Of a stretch of 48,995 nucleotides of DNA, positions 7,132 through 38,300 are shown piece by piece. The translations under genes and the position numbers were made by a program. Position 1 is the stretch's first letter; each line of letters starts with the position of its first letter. The DNA comes from an uncultured Bacteroidales bacterium. Lineage in GTDB: Bacteria > Bacteroidota > Bacteroidia > Bacteroidales > F082. Under the pieces are notes generated by a model. That model did no database searches, was not told the origin of the DNA, and worked only from the letters and a program-made list of their open reading frames with translations. The DNA lies in assembly GCA_937877465.1 (NCBI GenBank), contig CALFIT010000286.1, positions 1 through 48,995 of the forward strand, written 5' to 3'.

Positions 7132-7428
7132 ATGATTACCGAAAAAGCAACCTATTACCTCGTCTATGCCGCCTTGGTGCTTGTCAGTTTCTTGATTGAC
7201 AACTTGTTGCTGAAGAAAACGGACAAGACGAGTCGCACCATCGGCTATGTTCTCAGCGTCATCGTCGATTTGGCCATCTTCGGCTACGGCATCTACCTTT
7301 ACAAAGCCAAGGGCGAGGACCAGACCGGCTTCGTTCTAGGCGGCATCCTCTTCGGCGTGTGCCTGTTGTGCCTCTTGGGACGCTATTGGCAAAACAAGGA
7401 AGCCGACAAAAAAAGGAGGAAGGGATGA
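7132..7428 (+). CDS. Small (98 aa) three-helix membrane protein
   Basis: Start trimmed to the ATG at 7132, downstream of the hairpin. Three hydrophobic segments and a basic tail KEADKKRRKG. Its TGA stop overlaps the next gene's ATG (ATGA at 7425-7428). Confidence 0.6.
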   Translation: MITEKATYYLVYAALVLVSFLIDNLLLKKTDKTSRTIGYVLSVIVDLAIFGYGIYLYKAKGEDQTGFVLGGILFGVCLLCLLGRYWQNKEADKKRRKG

Positions 7429-9245: not shown

Positions 9246-9255
9246 GTTGTTAGAT

Positions 9256-20319: not shown

Positions 20320-23190
20320 TTAGTTCGTTATGATGACTTTTTGGGTGACGGTTATGCCTTTGTAGTTGAACACAAAGAGATAAATGCCGTCATTATAGGT
20401 GCTTATGGTGTATGGGAATGGGCGTTCGGCGATCACACTCAGTTCGAAGTCGTCGATGAGTCGGCCTATCATGTCATAGACCTTGATGGCCACTATTCCT
20501 TGCATATTGCCTAACATGAGGGTCATCTTGCCGTGATTGGGGTTGGGCATGATGGCAATATTCGGATGGCCTTCTTGCTCGTCGGTGCCGATGAAGCTGC
20601 TGATGAGCCAGAAACGACGGACGATGCCGTTGTTAGGGTCGCAGGCATTGTAGACGGTCGCACGCAGCCAAACGGTGTCTTCGACGCGGCCAGTGACGGT
20701 GACGGAACAGAATTCGCCGACGTCGCCGTAGGAGCGCAGCAGCCAGCCGGTGTTGTTCTCAAGGCTCCAAACCACCGAGTCCCATACGTTGCCTTCATTT
20801 TGGTCCCATAGAGTGAAGTCGAAGCTATTCATCTCGAATTCGGTTGGCGTAATGACCCAGTGGGGTGCCACATTATAAGGATCGGTGGAATGGATTTCTG
20901 ACGGGTTGGGTGGCACCGACAAGCTCAGTTCCAAGTGGACGATGCTGTCGCACCCCAACGAATTGGGGATGGTGTCGGTGTAAAATCCGGGCTGGCTGTA
21001 GAGTTGGCCGTGCCATTCGTAGGCCGTGCAGCCGCCGCTGACGCTGTCGGTGCCGCCTTCGACGGTGGCCGTGAGCGAGAGCCGCAGGCTGACGATGCTG
21101 TCGCAGCCGAAAGTCGAGGTGAAGACTTGGTCGTAGATGCCGTCCTCTGTGTAGGTCGTGCCGTTCCATGTGTAGGAAGCACTGCACTCGCTGTGGACGA
21201 TGGTGTCGGGGTTGATGATGCGGTCGGCCACGACGAGGTGCAGGTCGATGATGCTGTCGCAACCTTCGGGGTTAGGCTTGACGATGTGTCGGTCGTAGGT
21301 TCCAGGGTGGTCGTAGACGAAGCTGAAGCCATGTCCTTCGTAGGTCTCAGGCTCGCCAAACCAGCAGCGCAGGTCGTTGAAGGCAGCGTAGAAACCGGGC
21401 AGGGCATCGACGTAGATGAGCAGGCTGTCGCTGCATTCGGGGTGGACGGCGTTGGCGACTTCGAGACCCAAGATGGTGTCGTTGATGATGGTCACGTCGA
21501 AGCCGTGACCGGTGTAGGTGCCGCCGCTACACACCTCGGCGCCTTCGGTGAGGGTGTGCGTCCTCGTGTCGACATAATATCTCGACACGTCGATGGCCTT
21601 CCCAAACGAGTTGACGGTGAGGACGACTTCATAAATGCGCTTCTCGGCGTAGGTGTGGGTGGCGGGGTTTTGTGTGCTGGTGGCACCGTCGCCAAAGTCC
21701 CAGTCGACAGTGTAGTTGTCTTGGTTGACGTCAGCCTCAAAGGTGATGCTCTCGTCGGGGCAGTATTCGTAGGTGCCTTGTTTCGGGACCAAGGTCTCGT
21801 TGAGGGTGACGCGCGTGCTCAGGTCGATGGTCTTCGAGCCCACCAAATAGGCATAGCCTTTGGCGAAGCCGAAGCCGTAGACATGGGCGTTGAAGCCTCG
21901 CTCGCACAGCAGGTGATGCACGCCGTGCTCGATGTTTTGACGGGTGAACGAGAACTCGTCGGAGCCTTCGACGCGCTCAAACGCGCTGGCAGGCAAGAGG
22001 TTGCCGTCCAAATACACCTCGTCGACGGCGTTGTTGTTGACGATGATGTTCACATGGTGCGTGCTGATGTCGATGTTCTCGTCGTTGAAGGTGGAGAAGG
22101 TGATTTCGTCGATGCGTTGCTCGACGGGGGCAATCCAAACCACCGAAGGGTCACCGATGCTGTTGTTGCCTCTCGTGGTGTTGTAGAGGTAGACGGCTGC
22201 GGCCCCCGACGACTCGATGAGGCACGATTTCTCGGTGCTCGTCAGCTCGAAGATGTAGGATTCGTTGGCCTGCAGGCTGACCAAGAACTGCCCGTTTTTG
22301 AGGATGGTGTTGTCGTTTGACGAGGAGGTCACCTTCACCATGTCTTTCTCGCGTTCGAGCGAGTTGGTGACCACGAATTTCTTGCCCCACGATTGCAGAG
22401 GCATGGCTTGCTCGAAGATGTGGTCGAAGCTGCTGCCGTTGTTGGGAATGGCGGTCAGGTTGTTGCCGTTGTAGACGGCGATGGGCTTACCGTCGCGTGC
22501 CGTCACCCGTGAGCCGCTCAGGTCGCGCATGTCGCTGTTGCTGTTGGAACGCACTTGGTAGGTCTGTCCTTGGTTCAGCTGCACGCTGAAGGTCTGGCCC
22601 GCCGCATGTCCGTTGAGGGTTTGGGTGGCCGGCGTGATGTCGACGGTGGTGTTGTTTTCGGTGGCCACGATGAGAAAGGCGCTGGTTTGGTTTTGGGTTT
22701 GGAAAGGCTGGTTCGAGGAGATGTGCGACTGGTCGTAGGTCTGTATGATGTAGTCGTCGGCAAGGCTTTGGATGGGCAGCACATACGAGGCATCGAACGA
22801 GAGGTAGGCGATGTTGGTGCAGAAGACCGAAACGGTGTCGGAGCAACTGACCAAGATGCCTTTGTTCTGTACCTGTTCGGAGTTGCCGTCGATGTAGGCC
22901 ACGTCTTCGGGGATGTCGACGGTGGTGATGTTGTCGGCTTGCACGGTGAAGTCGGTGCTCCAGCCGGTTTGTGGGTTGGTGATGGTGCCAGTGCAGTCGG
23001 TCTTCGAGCTGATGAGCACTTGGGTGAGGAGCCAGTTGCCGTTGTTGGGGGCGCTGGAGTGGTATTTGTGTCCGTTGGTCATAAACGAAACCCAAAACTC
23101 CGTGCCTTGCGTCGAAGCGTCTTGTGCCTTGGCGGTAATTGCGGCGAGCAGCAATGCTGAAAGGATGGCAAAAGGTTTGAAAATCTTCAT
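20320..23190 (-). CDS. Type-A modular T9SS cargo protein (about 956 aa): IgGFc-binding-like N-domain, PKD, 4 two-Cys repeats, pre-CTD module, CTD
   Basis: Start moved to MKIFKPFAILSALLLAAITAKAQ (ATG at 23190). The ORF-track start at 23229 would overlap the upstream gene. Motifs: QGTEFWVSFMTN, FDHIFEQAMPLQSWGKKFVV, PKD WDFGDGATSTQNPATHTY, GCDSIV repeats, CTD MPNPNHGKMTL... Confidence 0.75.
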   Translation of the reverse strand: MKIFKPFAILSALLLAAITAKAQDASTQGTEFWVSFMTNGHKYHSSAPNNGNWLLTQVLISSKTDCTGTITNPQTGWSTDFTVQADNITTVDIPEDVAYIDGNSEQVQNKGILVSCSDTVSVFCTNIAYLSFDASYVLPIQSLADDYIIQTYDQSHISSNQPFQTQNQTSAFLIVATENNTTVDITPATQTLNGHAAGQTFSVQLNQGQTYQVRSNSNSDMRDLSGSRVTARDGKPIAVYNGNNLTAIPNNGSSFDHIFEQAMPLQSWGKKFVVTNSLEREKDMVKVTSSSNDNTILKNGQFLVSLQANESYIFELTSTEKSCLIESSGAAAVYLYNTTRGNNSIGDPSVVWIAPVEQRIDEITFSTFNDENIDISTHHVNIIVNNNAVDEVYLDGNLLPASAFERVEGSDEFSFTRQNIEHGVHHLLCERGFNAHVYGFGFAKGYAYLVGSKTIDLSTRVTLNETLVPKQGTYEYCPDESITFEADVNQDNYTVDWDFGDGATSTQNPATHTYAEKRIYEVVLTVNSFGKAIDVSRYYVDTRTHTLTEGAEVCSGGTYTGHGFDVTIINDTILGLEVANAVHPECSDSLLIYVDALPGFYAAFNDLRCWFGEPETYEGHGFSFVYDHPGTYDRHIVKPNPEGCDSIIDLHLVVADRIINPDTIVHSECSASYTWNGTTYTEDGIYDQVFTSTFGCDSIVSLRLSLTATVEGGTDSVSGGCTAYEWHGQLYSQPGFYTDTIPNSLGCDSIVHLELSLSVPPNPSEIHSTDPYNVAPHWVITPTEFEMNSFDFTLWDQNEGNVWDSVVWSLENNTGWLLRSYGDVGEFCSVTVTGRVEDTVWLRATVYNACDPNNGIVRRFWLISSFIGTDEQEGHPNIAIMPNPNHGKMTLMLGNMQGIVAIKVYDMIGRLIDDFELSVIAERPFPYTISTYNDGIYLFVFNYKGITVTQKVIITN

Positions 23191-23201
23191 GTCGGTTGAA
23201 T

Positions 23202-25613
23202 TTAATGAATTGTTATTGTTTTCTTGCACAAGGTGCCTTCCTTGCCCGTGGCCACGAAGAGGTAGATGCCGTCGGAAAGGTTTTTCATCTCGTAGGGACA
23301 GGTCAGGGAGCCTTGGCTGTTGTAAATCTGGAAATGGTCGATGATGGTGCCGCGCATGTCGTACACCTTCATGTCGATGGTGCCGGTCAGGTGCTCGAAG
23401 TGGAGGGTCATCTGGCCGTTGTTGGGGTTGGGCGCGACGCTGAACAAGGCCGGCTCTTCGTTATTTTCCTCGGTGCCGAAGAAGGAACTGACGAACCAAT
23501 AGCGGCGCACGATGCCTTCGGGATGGCACTTGTTGTAGACCTTGGCATCGAGCCAAATGGTGTCGTTGACGTGTTCAAGGACGTACATCTTACAGACGAT
23601 GCCTTTCGGATGGGCGTTTTCGTCGGGCACAAGGAGCCAACCGATGCCGGTGTTCTCGAAGGCCCAAGTGACGGAGTCCCAATGGCACGCGGTGTTGTAG
23701 TCCCAGAGGTAGAAGTCGTACGACATGATTTGGAACTCGGTGGCGGTGATGACCCAATGGGGCGCGGTGTTCATGGTATCCTTGGGATAGATCGGGGTGG
23801 GGTCGGGGGTGTATTCCAAGTCGAGGTCGAGATGCCCGATTTGGTAGCATCCCGTAGTGGGGTCGGGAAGGGTGTCGGCGTATGCACCGGCGACGAAATA
23901 GGTCTGGCCGTTAAAGTCCCAAGTGTAAGCATCGCAGTCCGTGGCCGAAACGGGTTCGATGTCTTCGAGATTGGAGGTGATGTAAAGCTTTGAGGTGATG
24001 CCCGAGGTGGAACCGCCGCCGCAGGGGTTCTCTTGTGTTCGCACCGTAAGGGTGGCTTCGTAGAAGGCATAGCTCTCGTAGGTGTGCGTGGCGGGATTGT
24101 CGGTGCTGGTGGTGCCGTCGCCAAAGTCCCAAAGCAGCTCGTAGTTGCTCAGGTTGATTTCGGCGGCAAAGGTGAGAGGCTCCAAGAAGCAGTTCATGAT
24201 GGTGTCGTTGGGCGCGACCGTTTCGCCGTTGACGATGAGGGTGGTGGAGAGGTCGGCGGTTTTCGAGCCAACCATGTAGGCATAGCCCCTTGCGTCGCCG
24301 AAGCCGTAGATGTGGGCGTTGAAGCCGTTGGGACAGCTCAAGTGGTGTACGCCGTGCGTGATTTGCGCCCTGTAATAGCTGTAGTCGCTGTTGCCCGCCA
24401 CGGCATCGAATTGTCCTGACGGCAAGAGCGCATTGTCCATATAGACCTTGTCAACGTCTTGACTCTCAACGATGATGTTCATGTAATGGTTGCTGATGTT
24501 GACGTTGCTGTGGTCGTAGTTGAAGGTCGAGAAGGTGATTTCGTCGATGCGTTGCTCGATGGGGGCAATCCACACCATCGACGGGGCGCCGTTGCCCGAA
24601 CCGTTTGAGCTGGTGTTGTAGAGGTAGACGGCGCAGCTGTGGGTGGCTTCGAGATAGCACGATTTCTCCGAACTCGAGATGCTGATGCTTCGCGACTCGT
24701 TGGCATTGAGGGTGAAAAGCACTTCGCCGTTCTTGCGGATCACGTTGCCGTCAGCCGACGAGGTGATTTTGTAGTAGTCTTGGCTTCGTCCCAACGAGGT
24801 GGTGACGACAAACTTCCTGCCCCACGAGCGCAAGGGCATGGCCTGCTCAAACACGCAGTCGCAGTCGCTCGACGCGCTGACGGGAATCAGGGTGAGGTTG
24901 TTGCCGTTGAAGATGGCGATCTTCTTGCAGTCGTGGGCGGTGACGCGCGTCCCGCTCAGGTCGCGGTTGCTGTTGCTGTCGCTTGAGCGCAGCTGGTAGG
25001 CTTGCCCCTTGTTGAGCACGATGCTGAACTTCTGATGGGCTGGCTTGCCGCCAAAGGTCTTCACCGATGGCGTGATGTCGATGGTGGTGTTGTCTTCCGT
25101 GGCCACGATGACGAAGGCGCTGGTGGGGTCGTAGGTGCTGGTGTAGTTCGACTGGTCGAAGGTCTGGATGATGTAGTCGTCGGCCAAGCCCTCAGTGGGC
25201 AACACATAGGAGGCGTCAAACGAGTAGGTGGCGATGTTGGCGCAATACACCGAAACGGTGTCGGTGGTGCTGATTTGCAGCCCTTTGTTGACCACTTGCT
25301 CGTATTCCGAGCTTTCAACATACACTTGCGTTTCCTCAAGGTCGACAGAGAAGATGTTGTTGGCTTCCACGCTGAAGCTTTGCGACCAGCCGGTGTTGGG
25401 GTTGGTGATGACGCCCGTGCAGCTCCGTTGGGCACTGACCATCAGTTGCACGCGCACCCAGCCGTTGGGGTTGTTGGGATGGTATTTGAACCCGTTCCCG
25501 ATGAAGGAAAGCCAAAACTCCTTGCCTTGCGTCGAGATTTCCTGCGCGTTTGCGGCATTGATGCCTCCGAATAGAGCCAAAGCCATGAGTGCCAATATCT
25601 TGAAGTGCTTCAT
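23202..25613 (-). CDS. Type-A modular T9SS cargo protein (803 aa): IgGFc-binding-like N-domain, PKD, 1 degenerate two-Cys repeat, pre-CTD module, CTD
   Basis: Motifs: QGKEFWLSFIGN, CDCVFEQAMPLRSWGRKFVV, WDFGDGTTSTDNPATHTY, APHWVITATEFQIMSYDFYLWD, CTD APNPNNGQMTLHFEHL... Only 11 nt to the downstream gene. Confidence 0.75.
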   Translation of the reverse strand: MKHFKILALMALALFGGINAANAQEISTQGKEFWLSFIGNGFKYHPNNPNGWVRVQLMVSAQRSCTGVITNPNTGWSQSFSVEANNIFSVDLEETQVYVESSEYEQVVNKGLQISTTDTVSVYCANIATYSFDASYVLPTEGLADDYIIQTFDQSNYTSTYDPTSAFVIVATEDNTTIDITPSVKTFGGKPAHQKFSIVLNKGQAYQLRSSDSNSNRDLSGTRVTAHDCKKIAIFNGNNLTLIPVSASSDCDCVFEQAMPLRSWGRKFVVTTSLGRSQDYYKITSSADGNVIRKNGEVLFTLNANESRSISISSSEKSCYLEATHSCAVYLYNTSSNGSGNGAPSMVWIAPIEQRIDEITFSTFNYDHSNVNISNHYMNIIVESQDVDKVYMDNALLPSGQFDAVAGNSDYSYYRAQITHGVHHLSCPNGFNAHIYGFGDARGYAYMVGSKTADLSTTLIVNGETVAPNDTIMNCFLEPLTFAAEINLSNYELLWDFGDGTTSTDNPATHTYESYAFYEATLTVRTQENPCGGGSTSGITSKLYITSNLEDIEPVSATDCDAYTWDFNGQTYFVAGAYADTLPDPTTGCYQIGHLDLDLEYTPDPTPIYPKDTMNTAPHWVITATEFQIMSYDFYLWDYNTACHWDSVTWAFENTGIGWLLVPDENAHPKGIVCKMYVLEHVNDTIWLDAKVYNKCHPEGIVRRYWFVSSFFGTEENNEEPALFSVAPNPNNGQMTLHFEHLTGTIDMKVYDMRGTIIDHFQIYNSQGSLTCPYEMKNLSDGIYLFVATGKEGTLCKKTITIH

Positions 25614-25705: not shown

Positions 25706-28348
25706 CTATGGTGCCACGACGACTTTCCGTGCCACGGTGCCGTTGCGTCCTGTGACCACGAAGAAATAGATGCCTGAGGCATCGGTGCTCATATGGTAGG
25801 TGAGGGAATGGTTATCGGTTTCGTTGTGGGTCACGAATCGGTCGAGCAGCGTGCCTCTCATGTCGTATACTTTGACTTCAACGGGACCGAAGAAGTTCTC
25901 GAAGTTGAGCGTCATCTGCCCGTTGTTGGGGTTGGGTGCCACGCCGAAGTCGGCCATGTTGTGTTCGTCCACGTCATAGAAGGAGCAAACAAACCAATAC
26001 CTGCGCTCGATGCCTTGTGGGGCACAGTCATTGTAGGCCTTGGCACTGAGCCATACGGTGTCGTCGACACGCTCAAGGACATACATCGTGCAACTCAGTC
26101 CTTTTGGGATAGAGCTTTCGTCGGGTTCAAGGATCCACTGGATGTCGGGGTTGGCAAACGCCCATGTGACGGAATCCCAATGACAGGCCGTGTTGTCGTC
26201 CCACAAATAGAATTCGTAGGAGTTGATCTGGAACTCGGTCGCGGTGACCACCCAGTGCGGAGCGGTGTTGTCGGGGTCTTTGGGGAAAATCGGGGTGGGA
26301 GTGGGGGTGTATTGCAGACTGAGGTCGAGGTGGACGATGCTGTCGCAACCCATTGGGGTGTAGAGGTTCTCGGTGTAAACGCCCGGCGTTGTGTAGGTCA
26401 TGCCTTGCCAATCGTAGCTGTCGCAAGTTGACACAACGAGCGGCTCGGTGTCGACATGGCCATACACGCGGATGTTCACGTCGACAATCTGTGTGGTGTA
26501 TCCGTCGTTGACGGTGCAGGTGAAGACGGTCGTGCCTACGGGCGGCGTGGCCACGGGGTCTTGTATGTTGGCGTTGTTCAGCAGGTTGGCGGGCGACCAG
26601 CTGTAGGTGTAGCTGCCCGTGCCGCCCAAAGGCAGGGCATGAAGGGTTGTCGTCTCGCCGTCGCAAAGGATGTATTGGTCGGCGGAGGCTGTGGCAGTCA
26701 GGTTGGAACCGGCCATGACGACGGTGACCTGCGCCGTGTTGGTGCAGCCGCCTTCAAGGTTGGTGACGGTGACGGTGTAGACCTGCGTCTCCTCCAAGTT
26801 CACGGTCTGGGTGGTGGGACTGTTGGGGTCGACGACCATGTTGGCCGGCTCCCAATGGTAAGTGCAATGGCTTGCGTTTGTCGCCTCCGCGCCGATGGTG
26901 GCGATGCCTCCAAAGAAGACGGAGGCAGGCTCAGCCGACGTGGCGATGGCGGGAATCGTGTACACCGAAACGGTTTGCGTCTTTTGGTCGGTACACATGT
27001 TGTAGGTGGTGCCCACGCTGAGCGTCACCTCATATTCGCCGGCTTGGGCGTAGGTGTGCGAGGGGTTCGTTTCGTCGCTCGTATGGCCGTCGCCAAAGTC
27101 CCATTCGATGTGCTCGATGGCTTGCCCTGAAGGGTTGGTAGTCGAGGTGTTGGTGAACTGCATGGGGCTGCCTTCGCAAACCGCGACGAAGCTGAAGTCG
27201 GCGGTGGGTTGCGCCACCACTTCAACAAAATCGGTCTCGGCGCTGCTCGTCTCGTTGCCCACGGTGATGGTGCAGGTGTAGACGCCGGCCATCTCCATCG
27301 TGCAGTTCGGGATGACGGGGTTTTGCTCCGTTGAGTTGAAGCCGTTGGGACCGCTCCAGCTGAAGGTGGCGCCAATCTGGTTTTGTGCCGTCAGGTTGAT
27401 GGTCTCGCCCACGCAATAAGGGCCGCCGCCGTTGACCAAAGGCGGCAGGATGCTACAGTCCGTGGTGCCCGTCCCCGTGTTCTCGAACGAGATGTTGCAA
27501 GGGCTGTTAGAGAAGTTGGTAATCAGCAAGATGTAGTATTCTCCGCTTTGCGCGTTGTTGATGTGGCAATTCTCGGTTGCGCTGGTGCTGTAGCTGCAAT
27601 CAACGATGTTGCTGCATGCTAACATGTCGCAGGCCGTGGACATGTCGGTAAACGGGCCCCAGCAGTCAAAGTCGATGTCGACGAGCGGGGTGCTGTACAT
27701 GTAGATGTTGAGGTTGCCGGGTTCGTCGATTCTCAGGAAATAGAAAGCGGGATTGGGGGCCGTCGAGAGGCAGTTCGAGGATTGTCCGGGCGTGCCTGAA
27801 CAGGCGTAAGGGTCGCTGCAATGCGCGTTGTAGGTGTCGCCGCAGGGCGAACCTGAATTGGTGCCTGCCGGGAAGGAATAAAGCCCCACATCGGTGCAGA
27901 AGGGTGAAGCCGTTTCGCATGTGGCGTTGTCGGAGGCGACGCCTCTCGTGAAGTCCTCGTAAAGGGTCTTGAAAACCTCGTCGTCGATGCCGTAGCGCCA
28001 TTGCACGAAAAGCTCGCCGCGCTGGTTCTTGTCCAAATAGCTGAACTCGTTGCGTTGCTCAAACAGGAGGTTGTCGAAAAAGAAATCAAAATCCGACAGC
28101 TCGTCGGGGGCGTCGTTGCCCACATACACGTCGATGGTGTTGGCCTTGTCGGGGTTCTTGTAGCAGAAATAGCCGTGGTCAAGGATGGCGTGTACCACAA
28201 AGACCCGTTCCTCGATGGTCGGGATGTGGGAAACGCTGAATTCCGACACCTTGATTTGACGCGGCTGCTGGGCAAACTGCTTCGTCGGGATGGCGCAGAG
28301 AAGCAGGACAGCCATAAAGAAAACACTATTTTTGCTTGTTGGTTTCAT
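25706..28348 (-). CDS. Type-B modular T9SS cargo protein (880 aa): N-domain, Cys-rich PPC-like domain, Ig-like, PKD, Ig-like repeats, 1 two-Cys repeat, pre-CTD module, CTD
   Basis: Motifs: signal MAVLLLCAIPTKQFAQ, PFCTDVGLYSFPAG...DIDFDCWGPF...GEYYILLITNFSN, GGPYCVGETINLTAQ, PKD WDFGDGHTSDETNPSHTY, GCDSIVHLDLSL, CTD APNPNNGQMTLNFENF... Confidence 0.75.
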   Translation of the reverse strand: MKPTSKNSVFFMAVLLLCAIPTKQFAQQPRQIKVSEFSVSHIPTIEERVFVVHAILDHGYFCYKNPDKANTIDVYVGNDAPDELSDFDFFFDNLLFEQRNEFSYLDKNQRGELFVQWRYGIDDEVFKTLYEDFTRGVASDNATCETASPFCTDVGLYSFPAGTNSGSPCGDTYNAHCSDPYACSGTPGQSSNCLSTAPNPAFYFLRIDEPGNLNIYMYSTPLVDIDFDCWGPFTDMSTACDMLACSNIVDCSYSTSATENCHINNAQSGEYYILLITNFSNSPCNISFENTGTGTTDCSILPPLVNGGGPYCVGETINLTAQNQIGATFSWSGPNGFNSTEQNPVIPNCTMEMAGVYTCTITVGNETSSAETDFVEVVAQPTADFSFVAVCEGSPMQFTNTSTTNPSGQAIEHIEWDFGDGHTSDETNPSHTYAQAGEYEVTLSVGTTYNMCTDQKTQTVSVYTIPAIATSAEPASVFFGGIATIGAEATNASHCTYHWEPANMVVDPNSPTTQTVNLEETQVYTVTVTNLEGGCTNTAQVTVVMAGSNLTATASADQYILCDGETTTLHALPLGGTGSYTYSWSPANLLNNANIQDPVATPPVGTTVFTCTVNDGYTTQIVDVNIRVYGHVDTEPLVVSTCDSYDWQGMTYTTPGVYTENLYTPMGCDSIVHLDLSLQYTPTPTPIFPKDPDNTAPHWVVTATEFQINSYEFYLWDDNTACHWDSVTWAFANPDIQWILEPDESSIPKGLSCTMYVLERVDDTVWLSAKAYNDCAPQGIERRYWFVCSFYDVDEHNMADFGVAPNPNNGQMTLNFENFFGPVEVKVYDMRGTLLDRFVTHNETDNHSLTYHMSTDASGIYFFVVTGRNGTVARKVVVAP

Positions 28349-28391: not shown

Positions 28392-31300
28392 TTATCTCTG
28401 GAGGATGACTTTCTTGGCGATGGTGCCTTCTTTGCTCGTCGCTACCAAGAAATAGATGCCGTCGGCTCTCGACGACATGTCGTAGAGCAACGAACTTGAG
28501 CTCATGTCGCTGAAAGTCTGTATGTTGTCGATGAGCGTGCCTCTCATGTCGTACACTTTGATGTCGATTTTGCCCGTCAGACGCTCGAAGTTGAGTGTCA
28601 TCAGTCCGTTGTTGGGGTTGGGCGTCACACTGAAGTCGGCCATGGTGTGCTCGTCAACATCATAGAAGGAGCAGACGAACCAATAGCGGCGGTCGATGCC
28701 TTGTGGCGCGCATTCATTGAAGGCTTTGGCGCGGAGCCAGATGGTGTCGTCGACGTGTTCAAGGACATACATCCTGCAGGTCTTGCCTTTCGGATAGGTA
28801 GTAAGGTCTGGCTCAAGCACCCAATCCAAGTCGGGATTGTCGAACGACCAGGCGATGGAGTCCCAATGGCATGAGGTGTTGTAGTCCCAAAGGTAGAATT
28901 CGTAGGACATGATCTGGAACTCGGTGGCCGTGATGACCCAGTGCGGCGCGGTGTTGGTGGGGTCGGTGGGGAAAATCGGGGTGGGGTTGGGGGTGTATTC
29001 CAAGTCGAGGTTGAGACGGAGGATGCTGTCGCAGCCCAAGGCGGTCGCAAGCACCTTCTCGTAGCTGCCCGAGGCGGTGTAAAGGGAGTCGATCCAGAAA
29101 TAGGCGTCGCATTCGTCGATGTCTAAGGTCGCGCCTTCCACTGCGCCCGAGATGAGCAGGTGGCAGTCGACGATGCTGTCGCAGCCGTCGTAGGTCGTGA
29201 ACAGCTGGCTATAGGTGCCGGTGGCCGAATAGTTCTCTCCGTTCCATTCAAACACACCGCAGGTGATGGTGTCGAAGGAGGTGTGTTGGGGCATGCCTAA
29301 GGTGAGGTGCATGGTGACGATGCTGTCGCAACCGCCCACGGAGGCATAGAGCCGCTCATAAGTGCCTGGACTGTTGTAGGTCTGGCCGTCCCAAACGTAG
29401 GTGCTGCTGCATTCGTGGTGGTCAAATTCGTAGGTGACGCGGTCGGCCACGGTGAGGTGCAGGCTGACGATGCTGTCGCAGCCGTCGACGCTTTCCAAGC
29501 TGAGCTGTCGGTCGTATTCGCCCGGGTGGTCGTATTCGAAGCTGAACCCGTTGCCGTCGTAGATGCCAGGCTCCCCGTGCCAGCAGCGGCTGTCGTTGAT
29601 GGGGATATGGTATTGCGGACGCGCCGTGATGTATAGCAACAGGCTGTCCTTGCATTCGGGATAGACGGGGTTGTCTTGCAGACGACTCAATATGGTGTCG
29701 TTGTTGATGAGAATGTTGTTGAAGCCGTGGCCGCTGTAGAGTTGGCCGGCGCAAGCCTCGTCGCTTTCGGTGACGTATTGCTGGCTGAGGTCCACAAAGA
29801 AATAGGTGGTGTCGCTCGACGAGGCGGTGCATCCGCTGGCATCGGTGGTGATGGCCAAGGCCACGCGATACACTTGCTTGTCGTGGTAGGTGTGCGTGGC
29901 GGGGTTGGCGGTGCTGGTGGCGCCGTCGCCAAAGTCCCAAAGCAGGTCGTATTGCTCGTAGTTGACCTCGGCGGCAAAAGTCATGGTGTTGTCGATGCAG
30001 TATGGGAAGCTCTCGTTGGGCTTCACTTCTATGTCGTTGATGGTCATCGTCGAACTCAAGTCGATGGCGTTGGAGCCGACGAGATAGGCATAGCCTTTGG
30101 CATTGCCGAAGCCGTACACATGGGCGTTGAAGCCGTTCTCGCAGGCGATGTGGTGTACGCCGTGGCTGATGTTCATCCTCGTGTAGCTGTAGTTGCTGTT
30201 GCCGTTGACGCGGTTGAAACTCAAGGGCGAGATGAGCTGGCCGTCGAAGTAAACATTGGCGATGTCTTCGGTCTTGACGATGATGTTGACGGAGTGGTTG
30301 GTGATGCCGATGTTGGCATGGTCGAAGGTGGAGAAGGTGACTTCGTCGATGCGCTGCTCGACGGGGGCTATCCACACCATCGAGGGGTCGCCCAAGCCGC
30401 CTCCGGGGTTCTGGTCGTAACTGGAGTTGTTGAAAAGGTAGACGGCGCTGGGTTGCGTGGCCTCAAGGAAGCACGAGCCTACGCTTTCGTTCATCGAGAA
30501 GGTGTAGGACTGGTAGGCCCGCAAGGTGGTCAGGCTGTCGCCGTTCATGGTGATGACGTTGTTGTTGGCGCTCGACGTGATCTTGATGAAGTCGCGGTTG
30601 CGGTTGAGCGAACTGGTGACCACGAAGTTCTTGCCCCACGAGCGCAGCGGCATGGCTTGCTCAAACACATGGTCGTAGCCGTTGCCCATGTTGATGGGGA
30701 CGCAGGTGAGGGTGTTGCCGTTGAAGACGGCGATGCGCTTGCAGTCGCTGGCGAGGATGTGGGTGCCGCTCAAGTCGCGTTGCGAACCCGAGCGCACCGA
30801 CCTGACGTGGTAGGTCTCGCCGGCGTTCAAGGTGATGCTGTAGGTCTCGCCGGCGACATGTCCGAGCAAGGTGGCGCAGCTCGGCGTGATGTCGATATGG
30901 GTGTCGTCTTCCGTGGCCACGATGACGAAGGCGCTGGTCTCGTTGTTGTAGACGTAGGCGTTCATGCTGCCTGCCACCGACTGGTCGTGCGACTGGATGA
31001 TGTATTCGTCGCCCAAGCTCTCAACGGGCAAGACGAATGAGGCGTCAAACGAAACGTAGGCGATGTTGGTGCAATACACCGAGATGGTGTCGTTCGCCTC
31101 CACCTTGATGGCTTTCTGCGTGATGGTTTCATAAGTGTAAGCGTCGTGATAGCCTTGTGCTTCGGGGATGTCGAGGATGGTGGTGTTGTTGGCGGTCACG
31201 TTGAATTCCCGTGTCCAACCCGTCAGTGGGTTCGAGATGGTGCCCGAGCAGTCGCGCTTGGCACTGATGAGCACTTGGTTGATGACCCAGCCGCCGCCTG

Positions 31301-31439
31301 AGGTGTGGTCGCGGAAACCGTTGTGCATGAACGAGAGCCAAAACTCCTTGCCTTGTGTCGATGTGTTTTGGGCCAACGCCGCCGGCATGGCAAGGCTGAA
31401 AAGAAGAAGCAATGATATTGTTTTTTTGATGAGATTCAT
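28392..31439 (-). CDS. Type-A modular T9SS cargo protein (1015 aa): IgGFc-binding-like N-domain, PKD, 5 two-Cys repeats, pre-CTD module, CTD
   Basis: Motifs: QGKEFWLSFMHN, YDHVFEQAMPLRSWGKNFVV, WDFGDGATSTANPATHTY, four GCDSI plus one ECKDS repeat, CTD TPNPNNGLMTLNFERL... Confidence 0.75.
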   Translation of the reverse strand: MNLIKKTISLLLLFSLAMPAALAQNTSTQGKEFWLSFMHNGFRDHTSGGGWVINQVLISAKRDCSGTISNPLTGWTREFNVTANNTTILDIPEAQGYHDAYTYETITQKAIKVEANDTISVYCTNIAYVSFDASFVLPVESLGDEYIIQSHDQSVAGSMNAYVYNNETSAFVIVATEDDTHIDITPSCATLLGHVAGETYSITLNAGETYHVRSVRSGSQRDLSGTHILASDCKRIAVFNGNTLTCVPINMGNGYDHVFEQAMPLRSWGKNFVVTSSLNRNRDFIKITSSANNNVITMNGDSLTTLRAYQSYTFSMNESVGSCFLEATQPSAVYLFNNSSYDQNPGGGLGDPSMVWIAPVEQRIDEVTFSTFDHANIGITNHSVNIIVKTEDIANVYFDGQLISPLSFNRVNGNSNYSYTRMNISHGVHHIACENGFNAHVYGFGNAKGYAYLVGSNAIDLSSTMTINDIEVKPNESFPYCIDNTMTFAAEVNYEQYDLLWDFGDGATSTANPATHTYHDKQVYRVALAITTDASGCTASSSDTTYFFVDLSQQYVTESDEACAGQLYSGHGFNNILINNDTILSRLQDNPVYPECKDSLLLYITARPQYHIPINDSRCWHGEPGIYDGNGFSFEYDHPGEYDRQLSLESVDGCDSIVSLHLTVADRVTYEFDHHECSSTYVWDGQTYNSPGTYERLYASVGGCDSIVTMHLTLGMPQHTSFDTITCGVFEWNGENYSATGTYSQLFTTYDGCDSIVDCHLLISGAVEGATLDIDECDAYFWIDSLYTASGSYEKVLATALGCDSILRLNLDLEYTPNPTPIFPTDPTNTAPHWVITATEFQIMSYEFYLWDYNTSCHWDSIAWSFDNPDLDWVLEPDLTTYPKGKTCRMYVLEHVDDTIWLRAKAFNECAPQGIDRRYWFVCSFYDVDEHTMADFSVTPNPNNGLMTLNFERLTGKIDIKVYDMRGTLIDNIQTFSDMSSSSLLYDMSSRADGIYFLVATSKEGTIAKKVILQR

Positions 31440-31503: not shown

Positions 31504-34500
31504 TTAATGCTGTATAACAACTTTCTTGGCTACGGTGCCTTCCTTGCTTGTCGCAATGAAGAAATAGATGCCATCCGTCCGGCTCCTCATGTCATATTGA
31601 TAGGTGCCAGGACCGGCGTTATTGTAAGTCTGGAATTTGTCAATCAGCGTACCGCGCATGTCGTATACCCTGATGTCAATCTTGCCAGAGAGTTGCTCGA
31701 AGTTGAGCGTCATCTGTCCGTTGTTGGGATTGGGGATCACGTCGAAGTCTTTGGGCTCGGCTTGATGCTCCTCGACGCCGATGAACGAACTGATGAGCCA
31801 ATACTTCCGCTCGATGCCATCGCTGGGTGAGCAGCGGTTGAAGGCACGGGCATTAAGCCAAACGGTGTCGTTAACCCAACTGAGCACATACAACCTGCAG
31901 CAAGCGCCATTCGTTCCAAAAGGTTCAAGCACCCAGTCCAAGTTGGGATTGTCGAACGACCACGAGATGGAGTCCCAATGGCAGTTCGGGTTCTGGTCCC
32001 AAAGATTGAAGTCATAGGTGTTGATTTGGAACTCGGTGGCTGTGACGACCCAGTGTGAAGTCGTGTAATCCATCGGGTAAATGGGCGTGGGGTTGGGCGT
32101 GTATTCAAACTGCACGTTCATTGTCACGATGCTGTCACAGTCCGAGTTGTTCTTGTAGGTCCTGTGGTAGACGCCCGACATATCGTAAACCAAGCCTTCG
32201 TGGTCGGTCGAGATAATCTCGTGCCCTTGGGGGTCCCAGAAGTATTCGTTGCAGTTCTCTTCGTCGCTGACGGTGAAAGTATATTCGTCGTGGTCGTTGA
32301 TGGTGAGATGCAGTGTGGCTTCGCTGTCGCAGCCGTAGGCGTTGATGTAATGATGCGTGTAGACGGTGCTTTCCGTGAAGGTCATGTCGACGTTGTAGGT
32401 GTCGTTTTTCCAACGGTAGGCATCGCAACTTGTGACAACCACCTCGTCGTCGAAACTCGGTCTGAGTTCGAGATTGAGAATCAGCGTACTGTCGCATGAG
32501 TTGGCATATTGCAGCGTGTCGAAGTAGATGCCGGTCTCATAATAGGTGTGTCCGTTCGAGGGCCATGTGTATTCGGTGGCGCAAAGCGACACAACATAGG
32601 TCTTGGAGTTGTATTCCGCCTCTTCAACGGTCAGGTAAACGATGCTGTCGCAGCCGGCTTGCGTTTGGAACACAAGCTCGTTGGGGATGGGGCTGGGTTG
32701 GAAGTAGGTGTCCAACGGAGCAAAGTAGTAGCCTGGGCCTCCTTCGCAAGTCGATTCGGTCAGATACACTTCATAGCTTGGATCTTGGATGAGGTTCAGC
32801 CTGATGATGCTGTCGCAGCCGTTGACGGTTTCGAGGGTGTGGTAATAGACACCCGAACTCGTGATAGGCTCTCCGAAGAAGCTGTAGGTGTCGCCTTGGC
32901 AGAAGTGGTCTGAGATGGAGGTCTCGTAGGTCTCGTGATGGGTGAGGTGCAGATGGATGGTGCTGTCGCAACCGTGTTGCGAAACAACGATATGGTCGTA
33001 GTCGCCTTCCTCGGAGAGGATCTCGCCGAAGAAGTTATAGGTGTCGTCGGGGCAGATGCTCACGTTGATGTCGGACTCGACGTGGGGATAGACGTAGACG
33101 CTGACGCTGACGTCTTGCGCCGAGAGGCCGTCGCTGACATGGCAGGTGTAGGTGGTGAGCCCAAGGGGCGGCGTAGCCACCGGGTCTTGGATGTTGGCGT
33201 TGTTGAGGGTGTTGGCTGGTGTCCAGGCAAAGGTGTAGTTGCCCGTGCCGCCCGAAGGCTCGGCATGGAGCATCGTGGATTCGCCTTCGCAAAGCTCGCT
33301 GTTATCGGCAGAGGCCGTGGCCATCATGTTGGAGCCTTCGATGACTACGGTGACACGACCCGAACCCGAACAGCCGCCTTGGGGGTTGGTGACGGTGCAA
33401 GTGAATTGCACGTTCTCATAAAGCGGGACGGTTTGAGTGGTCTGGCTGTTGGGATTGACGACCTTGTTGGCGGGCTCCCAACGGAAGTTGAAGGTGCCTT
33501 GCGTGCCCGCAGTGGCGGTGAGGGTGGTGGTGCCACCATAGATGACCGTGCTGGGGTTGGCCGACACGGTGGGTGTCGGCAGCGCGTTGACAGGTACCGT
33601 GCGGGTTGTCACGTCGGAGCACATGTTGTTGGCCGTCTGCACGGTGAGGGTCACTTGATAGCTACCCGCTTGCGCATAGGTGTGGCTTACGGTCTGGCCC
33701 GTGCCGGTCTGTCCGTCGCCGAAGTTCCACTGATAACTCGAGATTTGGCCTGTCGAAGTGCTGGTGAACTGAGTGGCGGTGCCTTGACAAACGGTGGTGA
33801 AGTTGAAGTTGGCGGTCGGCTGGGCAACGATGGTCACCGGAAGGGTCTTCTCGCTGGTGCAATGCCCTCCGCACGAAACGGTGAGCGTCACTTGGTAGGT
33901 GCCTGCGTTGGTATAGGTGTGCGAAACGCTGGCGCCCGAGCCGGTCTGTCCGTCGCCGAAGTTCCATTGGTAGCTCTGGATGGGCTGCCCCGTCGGGTTG
34001 GTGGTCGAGGTGCTGTTGAATTGCACGGCGTTGCCCGCGCAGGCGGCGGTGTAGGTGAAGTCGGCGGTGGGTTGGGGATAAATGACGACTTCCGTCGTGG
34101 CGCTGTTGGTCTGGCTACCCACAGCGATGGTGCAGGTGTAGGTGCCGGCCATGTTCATCGTGCAGTTCGGACGGGTCGGGTTCTGCTGGTTCGAACTGAA
34201 GCCGGCAGGGCCTGTCCAGCTGTAGCTTGCGCCCGACTGGCCGTTGGCGGTCAGGCTGATGGTCTCGCCCACGCAATAGGGGCCGCCGTTGTCGACCAAG
34301 GGAGGCAGGATGCCGCAGTCGGTGACGCCCGTGCCGCCCACCTTACTGAAGTTGATGTTGCAAGCTTGGTTCGAATAGTTGGTGATGACCAAGATGTAAT
34401 ACTCGCCTGTCTGCGAAGTGGCTGGAATCATGCAGTGTTCGGTGGCGGCGGCAGAGTAGCTGCAACTCACCACCTTGTCGGAGGTCAGTCCGTTGGGGCA

Positions 34501-35175
34501 AGGCGTCGTTTCGGGAATGGTGGGGTCGACGCTGTAAGGCCCCCAGCAGCAGAAGTCGATGTCGTGGCTCGGTGTGCTGTACATGTAGATGTCGATGCTG
34601 CCTGCGGGACTGCCGATTCTCATGTAATACCAAGCGGGGTTGGGCTGCGTGTAAAGGCAGCTGTAGTAAGGTCCCGATTCGCCCGAGCCGGCATTCACGC
34701 CCGCCGGAAACTCATACATTCCGTTGTCGGTGCAGAAAGGGTCGGCAAGGACGCAGAGATTGTTGTCACGCGACCTCGCGTAGATGTCCATCATCAACGA
34801 CATGGTGAAGTCGTTGGGCAGCGCGGCCTTGAGGGCAGCCGCGGCTTCTGCGGCTTGCTCCTTGTCCATCATCGAAAACGCAGCGGCGTTTTGCGTGCGA
34901 AATTCGTTGTAGGCCTCTTCCAAGTTGAGCCCTTCAAAAGCCTCGTTGGCACTGACGATGAAGATGCCGTCGCGCTCGCTGGTGATGACGTCGAAGCGGC
35001 TGTCGTTGGCCAAGTTGTAGAGCGTGAAGACGCGCTCGTCGAAGTTGGCGATGTCAGTGATGTTGAACTCGATGGTTGGCTGGCCGTGGACGGTTTGGAC
35101 TGGCTGAGCGAACTGTCTCAAAGGCATGGCCAACAGCAACAGGGTTGCACAAATGATTCTCGTAAAGCTTTTCAT
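31504..35175 (-). CDS. Type-B modular T9SS cargo protein (1223 aa): N-domain, Cys-rich PPC-like domain, Ig-like, 2 PKD, Ig-like repeats, 6 two-Cys repeats, pre-CTD module, CTD
   Basis: Motifs: PFCTDNGMYEFPAG...DIDFCCWGPY...GEYYILVITNYSN, GGPYCVGETISLTAN, two PKD units (WNFGDGQTGSGASVSHTY, WNFGDGQTGTGQTVSHTY), six CDS[IT] repeats, CTD IPNPNNGQMTLNFEQL... Confidence 0.75.
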   Translation of the reverse strand: MKSFTRIICATLLLLAMPLRQFAQPVQTVHGQPTIEFNITDIANFDERVFTLYNLANDSRFDVITSERDGIFIVSANEAFEGLNLEEAYNEFRTQNAAAFSMMDKEQAAEAAAALKAALPNDFTMSLMMDIYARSRDNNLCVLADPFCTDNGMYEFPAGVNAGSGESGPYYSCLYTQPNPAWYYMRIGSPAGSIDIYMYSTPSHDIDFCCWGPYSVDPTIPETTPCPNGLTSDKVVSCSYSAAATEHCMIPATSQTGEYYILVITNYSNQACNINFSKVGGTGVTDCGILPPLVDNGGPYCVGETISLTANGQSGASYSWTGPAGFSSNQQNPTRPNCTMNMAGTYTCTIAVGSQTNSATTEVVIYPQPTADFTYTAACAGNAVQFNSTSTTNPTGQPIQSYQWNFGDGQTGSGASVSHTYTNAGTYQVTLTVSCGGHCTSEKTLPVTIVAQPTANFNFTTVCQGTATQFTSTSTGQISSYQWNFGDGQTGTGQTVSHTYAQAGSYQVTLTVQTANNMCSDVTTRTVPVNALPTPTVSANPSTVIYGGTTTLTATAGTQGTFNFRWEPANKVVNPNSQTTQTVPLYENVQFTCTVTNPQGGCSGSGRVTVVIEGSNMMATASADNSELCEGESTMLHAEPSGGTGNYTFAWTPANTLNNANIQDPVATPPLGLTTYTCHVSDGLSAQDVSVSVYVYPHVESDINVSICPDDTYNFFGEILSEEGDYDHIVVSQHGCDSTIHLHLTHHETYETSISDHFCQGDTYSFFGEPITSSGVYYHTLETVNGCDSIIRLNLIQDPSYEVYLTESTCEGGPGYYFAPLDTYFQPSPIPNELVFQTQAGCDSIVYLTVEEAEYNSKTYVVSLCATEYTWPSNGHTYYETGIYFDTLQYANSCDSTLILNLELRPSFDDEVVVTSCDAYRWKNDTYNVDMTFTESTVYTHHYINAYGCDSEATLHLTINDHDEYTFTVSDEENCNEYFWDPQGHEIISTDHEGLVYDMSGVYHRTYKNNSDCDSIVTMNVQFEYTPNPTPIYPMDYTTSHWVVTATEFQINTYDFNLWDQNPNCHWDSISWSFDNPNLDWVLEPFGTNGACCRLYVLSWVNDTVWLNARAFNRCSPSDGIERKYWLISSFIGVEEHQAEPKDFDVIPNPNNGQMTLNFEQLSGKIDIRVYDMRGTLIDKFQTYNNAGPGTYQYDMRSRTDGIYFFIATSKEGTVAKKVVIQH

Positions 35176-35353: not shown

Positions 35354-38300
35354 TTATTGCGTGACCATGACGCGCTTGACGGCCACGCCTTCTGCCGTGC
35401 GGATGCGGATCGTGTACATGCCCGCTCCGAAGGGCTTCAGGTTCAAGATGTAGGTGTCGTTGCCCGTCTCCACATCGTCGACCACCTGTCCGAGCACATT
35501 GCTCACCGTGAGGCGTTGCATGTTTTCGGCTTCGATGGTGACCATGCCTTGGGTCGGGTTGGGATAGAGCTTGGCCTTGGCACCTAACTCGTCGACGTCG
35601 GTCGAGTTCTTCACCGCGACGGACAGGGTGCTGCCGCTTTCGCCGCACTCGTTTTCGGCTTCAGCCTTCAGCGTGGCTTGGCCCTTGAAGGTGTCGCTCC
35701 AATACACTGTGGCATGGCTGCCTTCGGCAACGATGTCGCCCGCGCCTTCAGGCTCGATGCTCCAACGGTATTCGGCCCCAAAGCCTTCGCCCTCAATGGA
35801 ATATTCGCTTGAGGGGAAGTAGAGTACGTCGACGGCATCGTCACCCACGATGGCTTCAACGACGGGCGGCCTGTTGATGCTCAGGTGCAGGGTCACGATG
35901 CTGTCGCAGCCCGCAGCGTTGGCGTAGACCTGCTCGAAGTCGCCACTCTCGGTATAGACGGTGCCGTCCCATTCGTAGCTTTCGCAAGCGTCGACTTGGA
36001 ATGCCACTTGGTTGGATGTGTTGACGGTGAGGTGCATGACAACGGTCGAGTCGCAACCGTGGATGGAAGTGAAGATATTTTCGTAAACTCCTGATTCGTA
36101 ATAGGTTGTACCGTTCCATTCAAAGGCGTCGCAAGCCGTCGCTTCGGTCTCGATGTTGTAGGACTCTATTAATACAAGGTGCATGGTGACGATGCTGTCG
36201 CAGCCATAAACGCTTTGGAACTGCTGTTCGTAGTCGCCTTCCTCGCTGTATTCGATGCCGTTCCATGTGTAGGAGCCGCACGAGGCTACCTCAAACTCAA
36301 CATTGTGCTTCCTGTGGATGAAGAGCGTGAACATGGCTGTGTCGTCGCCGCAACTCGAGAATGCATTGAGATAGAAGGTGACGAACCCGTTTTCAATGTC
36401 TTGTGGGCCAGGCGTGTAGGTGGTGACGGGGGATGCTTCGTCGCCCATCTGTCCGTCGCCGACGAACTCCCAATAGAGGTCCTCGGCTTCGTTGACGGTG
36501 GCATGAAGCTCGTAGGTCTCGCCTTCGCAGATGTCTGCCGATTCGTCCATTTCGATGCTTGCCGGGTCGTGCAGGATGCCCACCATGCTGTCGCTGAGGG
36601 TCTCGCCGGCGGCATTGGTGACGGTGAGGGTTAAGGTCACCGTCTTGCGCTCACGGTCTTGCGGGCCTGGCTCGTAGGTGGTGACCAAGGCGTTGGCGTC
36701 GCTGAAAACGCCGTCACCGTCGCTAGTCCATTCCACGGTCTCATAACCTAAGGCAGTGCCTTCCAATTCAAAGTTCCCGAAGACGCAGGTCTCTTGGTTG
36801 AGTCCGGCATCGCAGGCGAAGGTGATGTGGCGCACGGGGAAGAGGATCTCGTCGATCCAGACGTGGTCGGCGCCGCTGCTGCCTGATGCGTCTTTCTCGT
36901 AAATCCATGAGAAGGTGTGCTCGCCTTGGCTGACGGCGAAGGTCATTTCGCGCCAGTTGAGCGTTTCGCTCCATGTTTGTTGCACTTGACCGTCGATGCA
37001 GAATTTCAGGTGGTCGTTGGCCTCGCAGTCGGTTTTCCTGTAGAAGCGGATCTCGTCCATGGGGTTCTCCACGTTGAAATGGAGGGATAGCGTCGAGCTT
37101 TCGTTGTGCCCGATGGTGCCCGATTGCAGGCAATAGGCTCCGGCGTAGGGTTCGATGCTGCTGACGACCCAAGGATGGTCGGGGTCGTTCTCCCATTCAA
37201 AGTCGTCCATGCCGTTTTCGAAGTTGGCGAGTTCGAGTCCGACGCGATGGTGGAAGGTCTGGAGGGTGTTGTAGGCGCCTGCCACGACTTGCAGGTTCAT
37301 CACGGCGTCTTCGCCACGCGGCATGTCGGGGGCGACGCTTACGGTGTAGGTCACGGTGACGGTTTGCGCCGGCGACACGGTGGCGGTGCTTACGCTCGGG
37401 TTGCTGATGCTGAGGTAAGGAATCATGGTGCCTAAGGTGGCGACGACGTTGTTGGCTTCGGCCCCGCCGATGTTTTGGTAGATGAAACTGATTTCGGCAG
37501 TCTCGCCCGGGTCGAGGCGACCGTTGCCGTGGCCTCGGTTGCTGATGTTGTCGTCGATTATCATCTCTTCTTCAATCTTGAAGTTGGGCGCGTAGGCGGT
37601 GAAGTTGAAGCCTGCGTTCCATGTGTGTGTGCCGTCGGTCATCAGCAAGCTGAAGCGAATGAGGGTGCCGTCGGGCACGTTGTCGGCCACGCGGATGCCA
37701 AACACCTCGTCGAGGGTGATGCTTTGGTTGGGACTCAAGGCGGGGATGGTAGTGGTGGCGTCGGTGATGCTGACCAAGTCTTGCATGACGGTGGAGAGGG
37801 TGGCGGTGGCAGCGGTTGAAGCCAAGTCGCCGGTATTCTTGACGGTGAGGTTGAAGCGGGCTTGTTCGCCGTATTCAAGCTGGCCGTTGCCGTTGGCGTC
37901 GCTGAGGGTCACTTCGGTCATGACGAGTTCGGGCTCGCTGATGACGTTGATGCTGCCTACATAACGCAGGCGGTCTTGCTTGGTGGCCACGATGGTGATG
38001 GTGCCGGTGGGTTGTGCCGCAAAGTTGACGCTTTGGGTGCTGCCCGTGGCGGTGGCCACGGCGAGGATGTTGTTGTCGCGTGTCAGGGCGATGACGGCAC
38101 CTTGCGGGGCACTCACGTTGATGGTCGTCGTGGAGGTCGTGATTTCAGCGGGATGGCTCACGTTCATTGCGGTGGGCACCTGCGTGAAAAGGGTCAGGAA
38201 GGCGTCGCAGTGGGCGGTGAACATCTTGTGGGTGATGGCTTTGCTCTCCGGGTTGTAGGGCCACGAGCTTTGTTGCAGGAAGTATTTGCCGGCCACGTTG

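Follow-up and report, generated by a model that had tools for sequence, protein, structure and literature searches.

The module shared by five tandem genes

The stretch of DNA analysed here, called the window throughout, covers 48,995 bp with 54% G+C and corresponds to the complete metagenomic contig CALFIT010000286.1 (assembly GCA_937877465.1) of an uncultured Bacteroidales bacterium of the F082 lineage. It contains an array of five tandem genes on the minus strand (A to E), whose products all end in a type-A C-terminal domain (CTD; PF18962 / TIGR04183), the sorting signal for type IX secretion systems (T9SS). Each of the five proteins carries one copy of a conserved module of about 115 amino acids directly before this CTD, and the nature, distribution and possible role of this module are the subject of our analysis. 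The genes and their module copies are arranged as follows, all on the minus strand:

Gene A, 20320-23229, 969 aa; module copy at 20575-20913 (residues 773-885), the most divergent copy with 48% identity to that of D
Gene B, 23202-25613, 803 aa; module copy at 23463-23810 (residues 602-717)
Gene C, 25706-28348, 880 aa; module copy at 25961-26308 (residues 681-796)
Gene D, 28392-31439, 1015 aa; module copy at 28647-28994 (residues 816-931, 116 residues)
Gene E, 31504-35175, 1223 aa; module copy at 31765-32100 (residues 1026-1137)

The five coordinate ranges that a preliminary description of the window had assigned to the module proved to be exact, in frame and on the minus strand. Translation of 28647-28994 on this strand yields TPNPTPIFPTDPTNTAPHWVITATEFQIMSYEFYLWDYNTSCHWDSIAWSFDNPDLDWVLEPDLTTYPKGKTCRMYVLEHVDDTIWLRAKAFNECAPQGIDRRYWFVCSFYDVDEH, which opens with TPNPTPIFPTDPTNTAPHWVITATEFQIMSYEFYLWDYNTSCHWDSIAWSF, closes with RRYWFVCSFYDVDEH and fits the consensus pattern proposed in that description; a plus-strand reading of the same coordinates was discarded, since it gives nonsense with a stop codon. 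The copies in the window share 48-77% identity to that of D and have 42 invariant columns. A hidden Markov model (HMM) built from the five copies was run with all filters off against all six-frame open reading frames (ORFs) of the window of at least 50 aa, and it matched the five array proteins with E-values of 1.4e-68 to 4.4e-55, the next-best match having an E-value of about 1. No module match was therefore obtained by this filter-free search in any of the seven other CTD proteins of the window, which are the following:

13419-18257, C25 peptidase with CTD
35354-40117, C25 peptidase with CTD
40142-43630, C25 peptidase with CTD
7359-9245, CotH protein with CTD
9247-11115, CotH protein with CTD
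two further CTD proteins of 258 aa and 525 aa

The C-terminal part of protein D is divided into four segments, given here in the order of the protein (minus strand):

28995-29411, three two-Cys repeats of the form C..W.G..Y...G.Y......GCDSIV.L.L, adjoining the module upstream
28647-28994, the module, consisting of a Pro-rich strap (TPNPTPIFPTDPTNTAP) and a seven-stranded beta-sandwich with core residues 834-924 (nt 28668-28940)
28638-28667, acidic inter-domain linker (residues 925-934, FYDVDEHTMAD region), the presumed site of CTD removal
28395-28637, type-A T9SS CTD (residues 935-1015; PF18962 and TIGR04183), with a fold like that of the NucA CTD (8glk_D)

The matches to Por_Secre_tail (Pfam) and TIGR04183 start directly after the module in all five proteins (at residues 938-940 in D), and 8-10 residues separate the end of the module from the PNPxxG motif that opens the CTD. 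Because all five profile matches begin beyond the module, we rejected the possibility that it is part of the PF18962/TIGR04183 signal. Its own beta-sandwich (see below), the start of the CTD profiles beyond it and the lack of module-HMM matches in the seven other CTD proteins agree with the earlier view that it is distinct from the generic sorting signal.

Scans of the five whole array proteins against Pfam and NCBIfam led to the annotation of A, B and D as IgGFc_binding plus PKD proteins and of C and E as PKD plus immunoglobulin (Ig) proteins; the only CTD model obtained from NCBIfam for all five was the type-A model TIGR04183, the type-B model TIGR04131 not being matched. Neither the module nor the two-Cys repeats were covered by any family in these scans. 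When 27 module sequences were compared with Pfam at E <= 1, only scattered single matches appeared, and no match was found to carbohydrate-binding module (CBM) or lectin families or to PF03785 (Peptidase_C25_C), which is detectable elsewhere in the window at residues 648-723 of the C25 peptidase 35354-40117. The Pfam scan likewise gave no direct module match to PKD_6 (PF19408). An assignment to the canonical PKD domains (PF00801 / PF18911) was rejected, as none of the 27 module sequences matched them at E <= 1 and, when the module was aligned by hhalign to 68 PKD domains found in this family of proteins, the P-value was 0.025 over 11 columns. The module profile matched no PDB sequence at E <= 10, and we found no account of the module, the two-Cys repeat or the operon in the literature. 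The module is an undescribed Ig-like domain family absent from the named families, as the preliminary description had concluded on the last point.

A first model of the module alone, calculated with 27 close sequences, reached a predicted local distance difference test (pLDDT) value of 74 and left the conserved N-terminal segment unplaced; Foldseek returned only Ig/PKD-type sandwiches for it, none of them at E <= 0.001. The second AlphaFold (AF2) model covered residues 804-1015 of protein D, comprising module and CTD, and was based on an alignment of 49 diverse sequences. It reached a pLDDT of 92.6 and contains two separate seven-stranded beta-sandwiches, with the Pro-rich strap, the module sandwich, an acidic linker of about 10 residues and the CTD sandwich following each other in this order. 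The module strands in the model are HWV, SYEFYL, SIAWSF, WVLE, CRMYVL, TIWLRAKA and IDRRYWFVCS. The linker is the sole low-confidence stretch (mean pLDDT 60 for residues 121-130 in construct numbering, with values below 50 only at 125-127), and construct residues 122-131 (FYDVDEHTMAD) are free of strands.

For the module plus CTD, Foldseek gave matches to Ig-like domains in tandem, among them intimin D00-D0 (E 2e-6), and for the tail a match to the NucA CTD of the T9SS complex (8glk_D, TMt 0.85), where the 80-column match to the 75-residue chain 8glk_D is attributable only to the last ~80 residues of the model. From the two sandwiches, the dip in confidence at the linker and the Foldseek matches, the module is predicted to be an independent seven-stranded Ig-like beta-sandwich and not part of the CTD. 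A single fold unit of module and CTD was discarded on the basis of the two modelled sandwiches split by a low-confidence linker. The structural comparison suggested earlier for this segment has thus returned a generic Ig-like sandwich, a kind of domain that is already known before the CTD in the gingipain RgpB (PMC4804311). The novelty lies in a new unannotated domain family rather than in a new principle. In addition, clean boundaries between module, linker and CTD are now available for a large paralogous adhesin-like family of the abundant uncultured rumen Bacteroidales.

Distribution, position and conservation

When 1.84 billion representative proteins were searched exhaustively with the profile, only 86 clusters contained the module. 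A first word-indexed database search with the module profile had returned only 38 short fragments, which were rejected as genuine short proteins because they are truncated gene calls. Genomic copies were collected by scanning one genome per GTDB species; this resulted in 121 matching stretches, from which 58 loci in 29 assemblies (by accession prefix) were kept. The hosts of the kept loci are all metagenome-assembled genomes (MAGs) of ruminant or other gut Bacteroidales, for example RUG bins, Candidatus Limimorpha and bins from roe deer, red deer and water buffalo. Three loci (L003, L040 and L052, on contigs DAIOUZ0100000xx) come from a MAG named 'Candidatus Limiplasma sp.' and show Bacteroidales-type T9SS module arrays together with the lipoprotein/barrel gene pair described below and a C25 gene. 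Candidatus Limiplasma is not known to be a genus of the Bacteroidota, in which case the bin would be mislabelled or contaminated.

The position of the module is invariant. In all 148 complete copies from the 58 loci and the window, it is separated from the CTD by a gap of 2-16 aa (median 5), and the tail beyond it measures 77-92 aa in all 60 full-length database representatives, which confirms for both sets that it always lies N-terminal to a CTD. Upstream, 148 of the 152 module proteins have a two-Cys repeat whose end lies about 9 residues ahead of the module. This repeat is about 40-50 aa long (C..W.G..Y...G.Y......GCDSIV.L.L.L), belongs to no Pfam or NCBIfam family, and occurs in 1-9 copies ahead of the module. 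Up to 14 copies are present in giant CTD proteins without the module, and the repeat is also found in the C25 gene 35354-40117 (residues 1280-1417). It has the look of a stalk repeat, hitherto undescribed, in T9SS cargo.

The N-terminal parts of the module proteins vary, as already evident in the window, where protein C has an N-terminal architecture unlike those of A, B and D. The copies are distributed over the architectures as follows:

IgGFc_binding-type, 62 copies
'C/E-type', 54 copies
neither of these, 32 copies, some with a PKD domain alone

The first 300 or so residues of proteins C and E (25706-28348 and 31504-35175, minus strand) form a Cys-rich region common to both (e.g. ...CETASPFCTD..YSFPAG...DIDF.CWGP...) for which neither Pfam nor NCBIfam gave a match, and which recurs in 54 module proteins of other MAGs.

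The loci themselves are of three types:

Type 1, arrays of 2-6 genes, often C25-flanked; the window belongs here
Type 2, a giant Big_9 / two-Cys-repeat / CTD protein followed by one or two module genes, without a C25 gene
Type 3, lone module genes with opposite-strand genes on either side

In types 2 and 3, no C25 gene lies within 10 kb of the module genes. Because three or more N-terminal architectures are combined with the module, which is also present in loci without C25 genes, it is neither array-specific nor tied to C25 peptidases. The earlier view that it is confined to the five array members has to be given up, and so has a restriction to C25 clusters.

The module is also more conserved than the parts on either side of it. 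Over 10,812 pairs, mean pairwise identity is 60% in the module, 51% in the CTD and 41% in the 120 residues upstream, which contain the repeats. The same profile is seen at the DNA level among the paralogues of the window, which are about 45-50% identical in the repeats, reach 80-90% within the module and are less similar again in the CTD. Recent gene conversion was rejected as the cause, because identical residues are encoded by identical codons no more often in the module (fraction 0.35-0.75) than in the N-terminal domains (0.59-0.75), the values of other regions being similar. As this fraction is not raised, the peak over the module reflects selection on the protein, and the constraint on the module is at the protein level. 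Among 94 close relatives, the tryptophans W31, W56, W61, W70, W98 and W117 (construct numbering) are invariant or nearly so. The module can serve as a highly conserved marker for this cargo family.

In the database set, 110 of 118 copies are followed by one and the same CTD subtype ('KVYDMRG'). The other eight (P0003, P0042, P0049, P0053, P0054, P0055, P0065 and P0090) precede the other type-A subtype, which is that of the C25 peptidases and the 258-aa protein of the window, and show domain swapping at the module-CTD linker. Module and CTD are usually co-inherited, yet separable.

Remote relatives and a linked lipoprotein/barrel pair

The giant adhesin-like Big_9 proteins of these genomes and two of the C25 peptidases in the window contain a segment of about 100 aa (about 95-105) between the two-Cys repeats and the CTD, that is, in the position occupied by the module in the array proteins. 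These segments share colinear motifs with the module, namely W.(L/I)EP and a conserved Cys near the end, and lead into the same terminal (V/I)(D/E)E linker. In the peptidases they are located as follows:

35585-35869, minus strand, pre-CTD domain of the C25 peptidase 35354-40117 (residues 1417-1511), with a weak match to PKD_6
13650-13922, minus strand, pre-CTD domain of the C25 peptidase 13419-18257 (residues 1446-1536), of the same type

Both domains end in KNSTDVDE(F/L); in the third C25 peptidase (40142-43630), the CTD is preceded by a different domain.

Profile-profile comparison by hhalign connected the module with the pre-CTD segment of the giant proteins (probability 86.5%, P 4.6e-6, 81 columns) and this segment in turn with the C25 pre-CTD domains (probability 65%, P 6e-5, 99 columns), as compared to P-values of 0.03-0.4 in controls with reversed or unrelated beta-sandwich profiles. 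A direct hhalign comparison of the module with the C25 domains was not significant (P 0.02), and the two are therefore connected only through the giant-protein intermediate. The match of PKD_6 to the pre-CTD domain of C25 peptidase 35354-40117 (20.2 bits, E 8e-4) stays under the gathering score of 25 bits, and the module itself differs further in having no direct match to that family.

The C25 relatives qualify the earlier statement that the block is absent from the seven other CTD proteins: it stands for direct sequence comparison by HMM, but profile-profile comparison reveals a remote relative in two of the C25 peptidases. The module is best regarded as one conserved, lineage-restricted subfamily within a wider class of pre-CTD Ig-like domains that lacks annotation. 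The differently named or unnamed pre-CTD segments, including those of the gingipain-like peptidases, probably constitute one superfamily missing from Pfam.

Directly downstream of the array, two further genes follow on the same strand:

19338-20189, minus strand, lipoprotein gene, 283 aa; lipobox LLNSC, then LKDD
18435-19313, minus strand, barrel gene, 292 aa; Pfam OMP_b-brl_2, NCBI 'PorT family protein'; downstream of the lipoprotein gene

The lipoprotein belongs to no Pfam or NCBIfam family. The barrel protein of the window matched no NCBIfam model at E <= 1, including those for PorP/SprF, PorQ and PorV; its relatives matched only TDE1717-type barrels there and, weakly, PorT/SprT (E 0.025).

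Linkage of this pair with the module genes was tested in both directions. In the forward test, the lipoprotein and barrel genes were found directly after the last module gene in 44 of the 58 genome loci, type-2 loci included, and the exceptions were mostly truncated or type-3 loci. For the reverse test, we relied on a metagenome scan, since a search with the barrel protein gave, among the matches listed, only close orthologues of at least 64% identity. By a mixed-alignment scan, 41 metagenome loci were picked by barrel homology, 33 of which had enough upstream sequence to be informative. In all of these 33, the gene directly upstream of the barrel gene is that of the lipoprotein, and the next one is a repeat-module-CTD gene.

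The lipoproteins and barrels of type-1 and type-2 loci share only 22-24% identity and fall into two ancient subfamilies of the pair; in one locus (L079), the pair is duplicated in tandem. Because the linkage is kept between locus types whose pairs have diverged this far, it must be old. The module shows 62% identity across the same two locus types, just as within arrays, and co-evolution of the module with the pair was therefore rejected. The motif xK(D/N)D comes after the lipobox Cys in either lipoprotein subfamily and resembles the export signal of surface lipoproteins in Bacteroidota. The link between module-containing cargo, lipoprotein and barrel is a robust association at the operon level. 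This very tight connection of a type-A CTD cargo with a surface lipoprotein and a small barrel is the most interesting lead of our analysis.

Possible roles of the module and further features of the window

We favour the reading, with a probability of roughly 55%, that the module has the structural role of a pedestal or insulator, comparable to the Ig superfamily (IgSF) domain of RgpB. PMC4804311 describes the IgSF-CTD tandem of RgpB as two Ig-like beads connected by a 9-residue disordered linker, whose length matters for attachment to anionic lipopolysaccharide (A-LPS), and proposes the IgSF domain as a spacer or insulator. The module reproduces this arrangement of Ig sandwich, short flexible linker and CTD, which does not imply membership in the same family: like the IgSF domain (Peptidase_C25_C, PF03785), it is modelled as a seven-stranded Ig-like sandwich directly ahead of a type-A CTD, with a linker of about 10 residues in D, forms an independent bead and would be the last folded domain after removal of the CTD. 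It differs from the RgpB domain in lacking detectable sequence similarity to PF03785, in following the cysteine-repeat stalks of adhesin-like proteins instead of a protease domain, in being much more conserved and tryptophan-rich, and in its confinement to ruminant-gut Bacteroidales.

According to this proposal, the protein would be exported by the Sec system, module and CTD would fold as two independent beads, and the T9SS would recognise the CTD, which would then presumably be cut off within the linker. The module would stay behind and, as a membrane-proximal domain, form the folded end of the mature surface protein. There it may keep the cysteine-repeat stalk from interfering with the CTD and set the geometry of the linker for cleavage and, probably, for anchoring.

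Several observations weigh against a pedestal or insulator. The module is more conserved than the adjoining secretion signal (60% vs. 51%), which one would not expect of a pure spacer, and the near-invariant HWV(I/V)TATEFQI segment together with the six conserved tryptophans points to a specific contact. The length of the module-CTD linker varies among the copies (about 13-19 residues from SFY to PNP), whereas linker length is critical in RgpB. The proposal also leaves the operon link to the lipoprotein/barrel pair unexplained, and the CTD cleavage and A-LPS anchoring that it presumes are putative in these uncultured organisms. A dedicated adaptor role, as had been suggested for the module, may exist, but none of our results requires it.

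The operon link would be accounted for if the module were a docking element for the downstream lipoprotein and PorT-like barrel, which would then form a cargo-specific platform for anchoring or assembly. We regard this as rather unlikely, and the evidence is divided. The pair directly follows the last module gene in most loci, with truncation explaining most of the rest, the reverse test was positive throughout, the linkage has survived the deep divergence of the pairs, and the residues after the lipobox Cys resemble the signal for surface export. However, the module does not co-diverge with its supposed partners. Moreover, the third locus type (L023, L039, L045, L053 and others) lacks the pair and is flanked by opposite-strand genes, module-less giant repeat-CTD proteins share the operons, so that the linkage may concern the cargo generally, and the barrel matches none of the NCBIfam models for PorP/SprF, PorQ or PorV.

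A precedent for docking is offered by cargo proteins with type-B CTDs, which are anchored via cognate PorP-like proteins (PMC9143113, PMC12618676); there as here, the cargo genes are tightly linked to the gene of a small outer-membrane barrel. The differences are that the CTD is of type A (TIGR04183) in our case, that the barrel belongs to OMP_b-brl_2 / 'PorT family' without a PorP/SprF match, and that a lipoprotein gene lies between the cargo and barrel genes. If the platform exists, the idea of a cognate outer-membrane partner would extend from type-B to type-A T9SS substrates. Taken further, cargo, surface lipoprotein and PorT-like barrel might constitute a hitherto unrecognised, self-contained type-A display unit, in which the module would be the capture handle, operating instead of or besides A-LPS. 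This would be the type-A counterpart to type-B CTD / PorP-like anchoring, and we hold it to be just as improbable as docking itself.

Still less probable, in our view, is an extension of the secretion signal: the T9SS translocon or the PorV shuttle would then recognise the cargo only if it has both the module and its own CTD subtype. Its constant place next to the CTD and the single CTD subtype following 110 of 118 copies would fit, and for RgpB it was concluded that the processing of the CTD may be governed by motifs in both of its neighbouring Ig-like domains (PMC4804311). Yet seven other type-A CTD proteins in the window do without the module, the eight copies with the other subtype show that the two are separable, module and CTD are modelled as independent domains with a flexible linker, and the fold of the CTD by itself is the one observed for a bound CTD in the T9SS complex (8glk_D). 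We are equally doubtful about a lectin-like or carbohydrate-binding beta-sandwich gripping a surface glycan (lipopolysaccharide, capsule) or plant or host glycans. The small beta-sandwich fold and the unusual richness in tryptophans, six of them invariant or nearly so, would suit such a function, as would the polysaccharide-rich habitat of these ruminant-gut MAGs. This is countered by the lack of sequence matches to Pfam CBM or lectin families and to solved structures, by Foldseek matches to generic Ig domains instead of CBMs, and by the fixed position next to the CTD, which is atypical for substrate-binding modules. The least supported reading, which we consider very improbable, is the earlier suggestion that the C25 (gingipain-family) peptidases encoded nearby recognise or process the proteins at the module. 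It is in line with the C25 genes flanking array-type loci in the window and in many MAGs, but the other two locus types have none within 10 kb, and the module is predicted to be a compact folded domain and not an exposed cleavage motif. In addition, two of the C25 peptidases themselves bear a related pre-CTD domain, which argues against such a role.

Two further observations concern the gene models of the window. The longest ORF of gene A begins with a GTG start overlapping the end of gene B, and a signal peptide (MKIFKPFAILSALLLAAITAKAQ) starts 13 codons after this GTG; the gene probably has its true start there, near nt 23190. On the plus strand, the region 13380-43636 contains many long ORFs of up to 954 aa that run antisense to the minus-strand genes (e.g. 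29676-31040 and 40160-43024). Their translations are of low complexity and rich in Gly, Val, Asp and Ala, and they look like by-products of the codon usage of the sense strand, not like genes.

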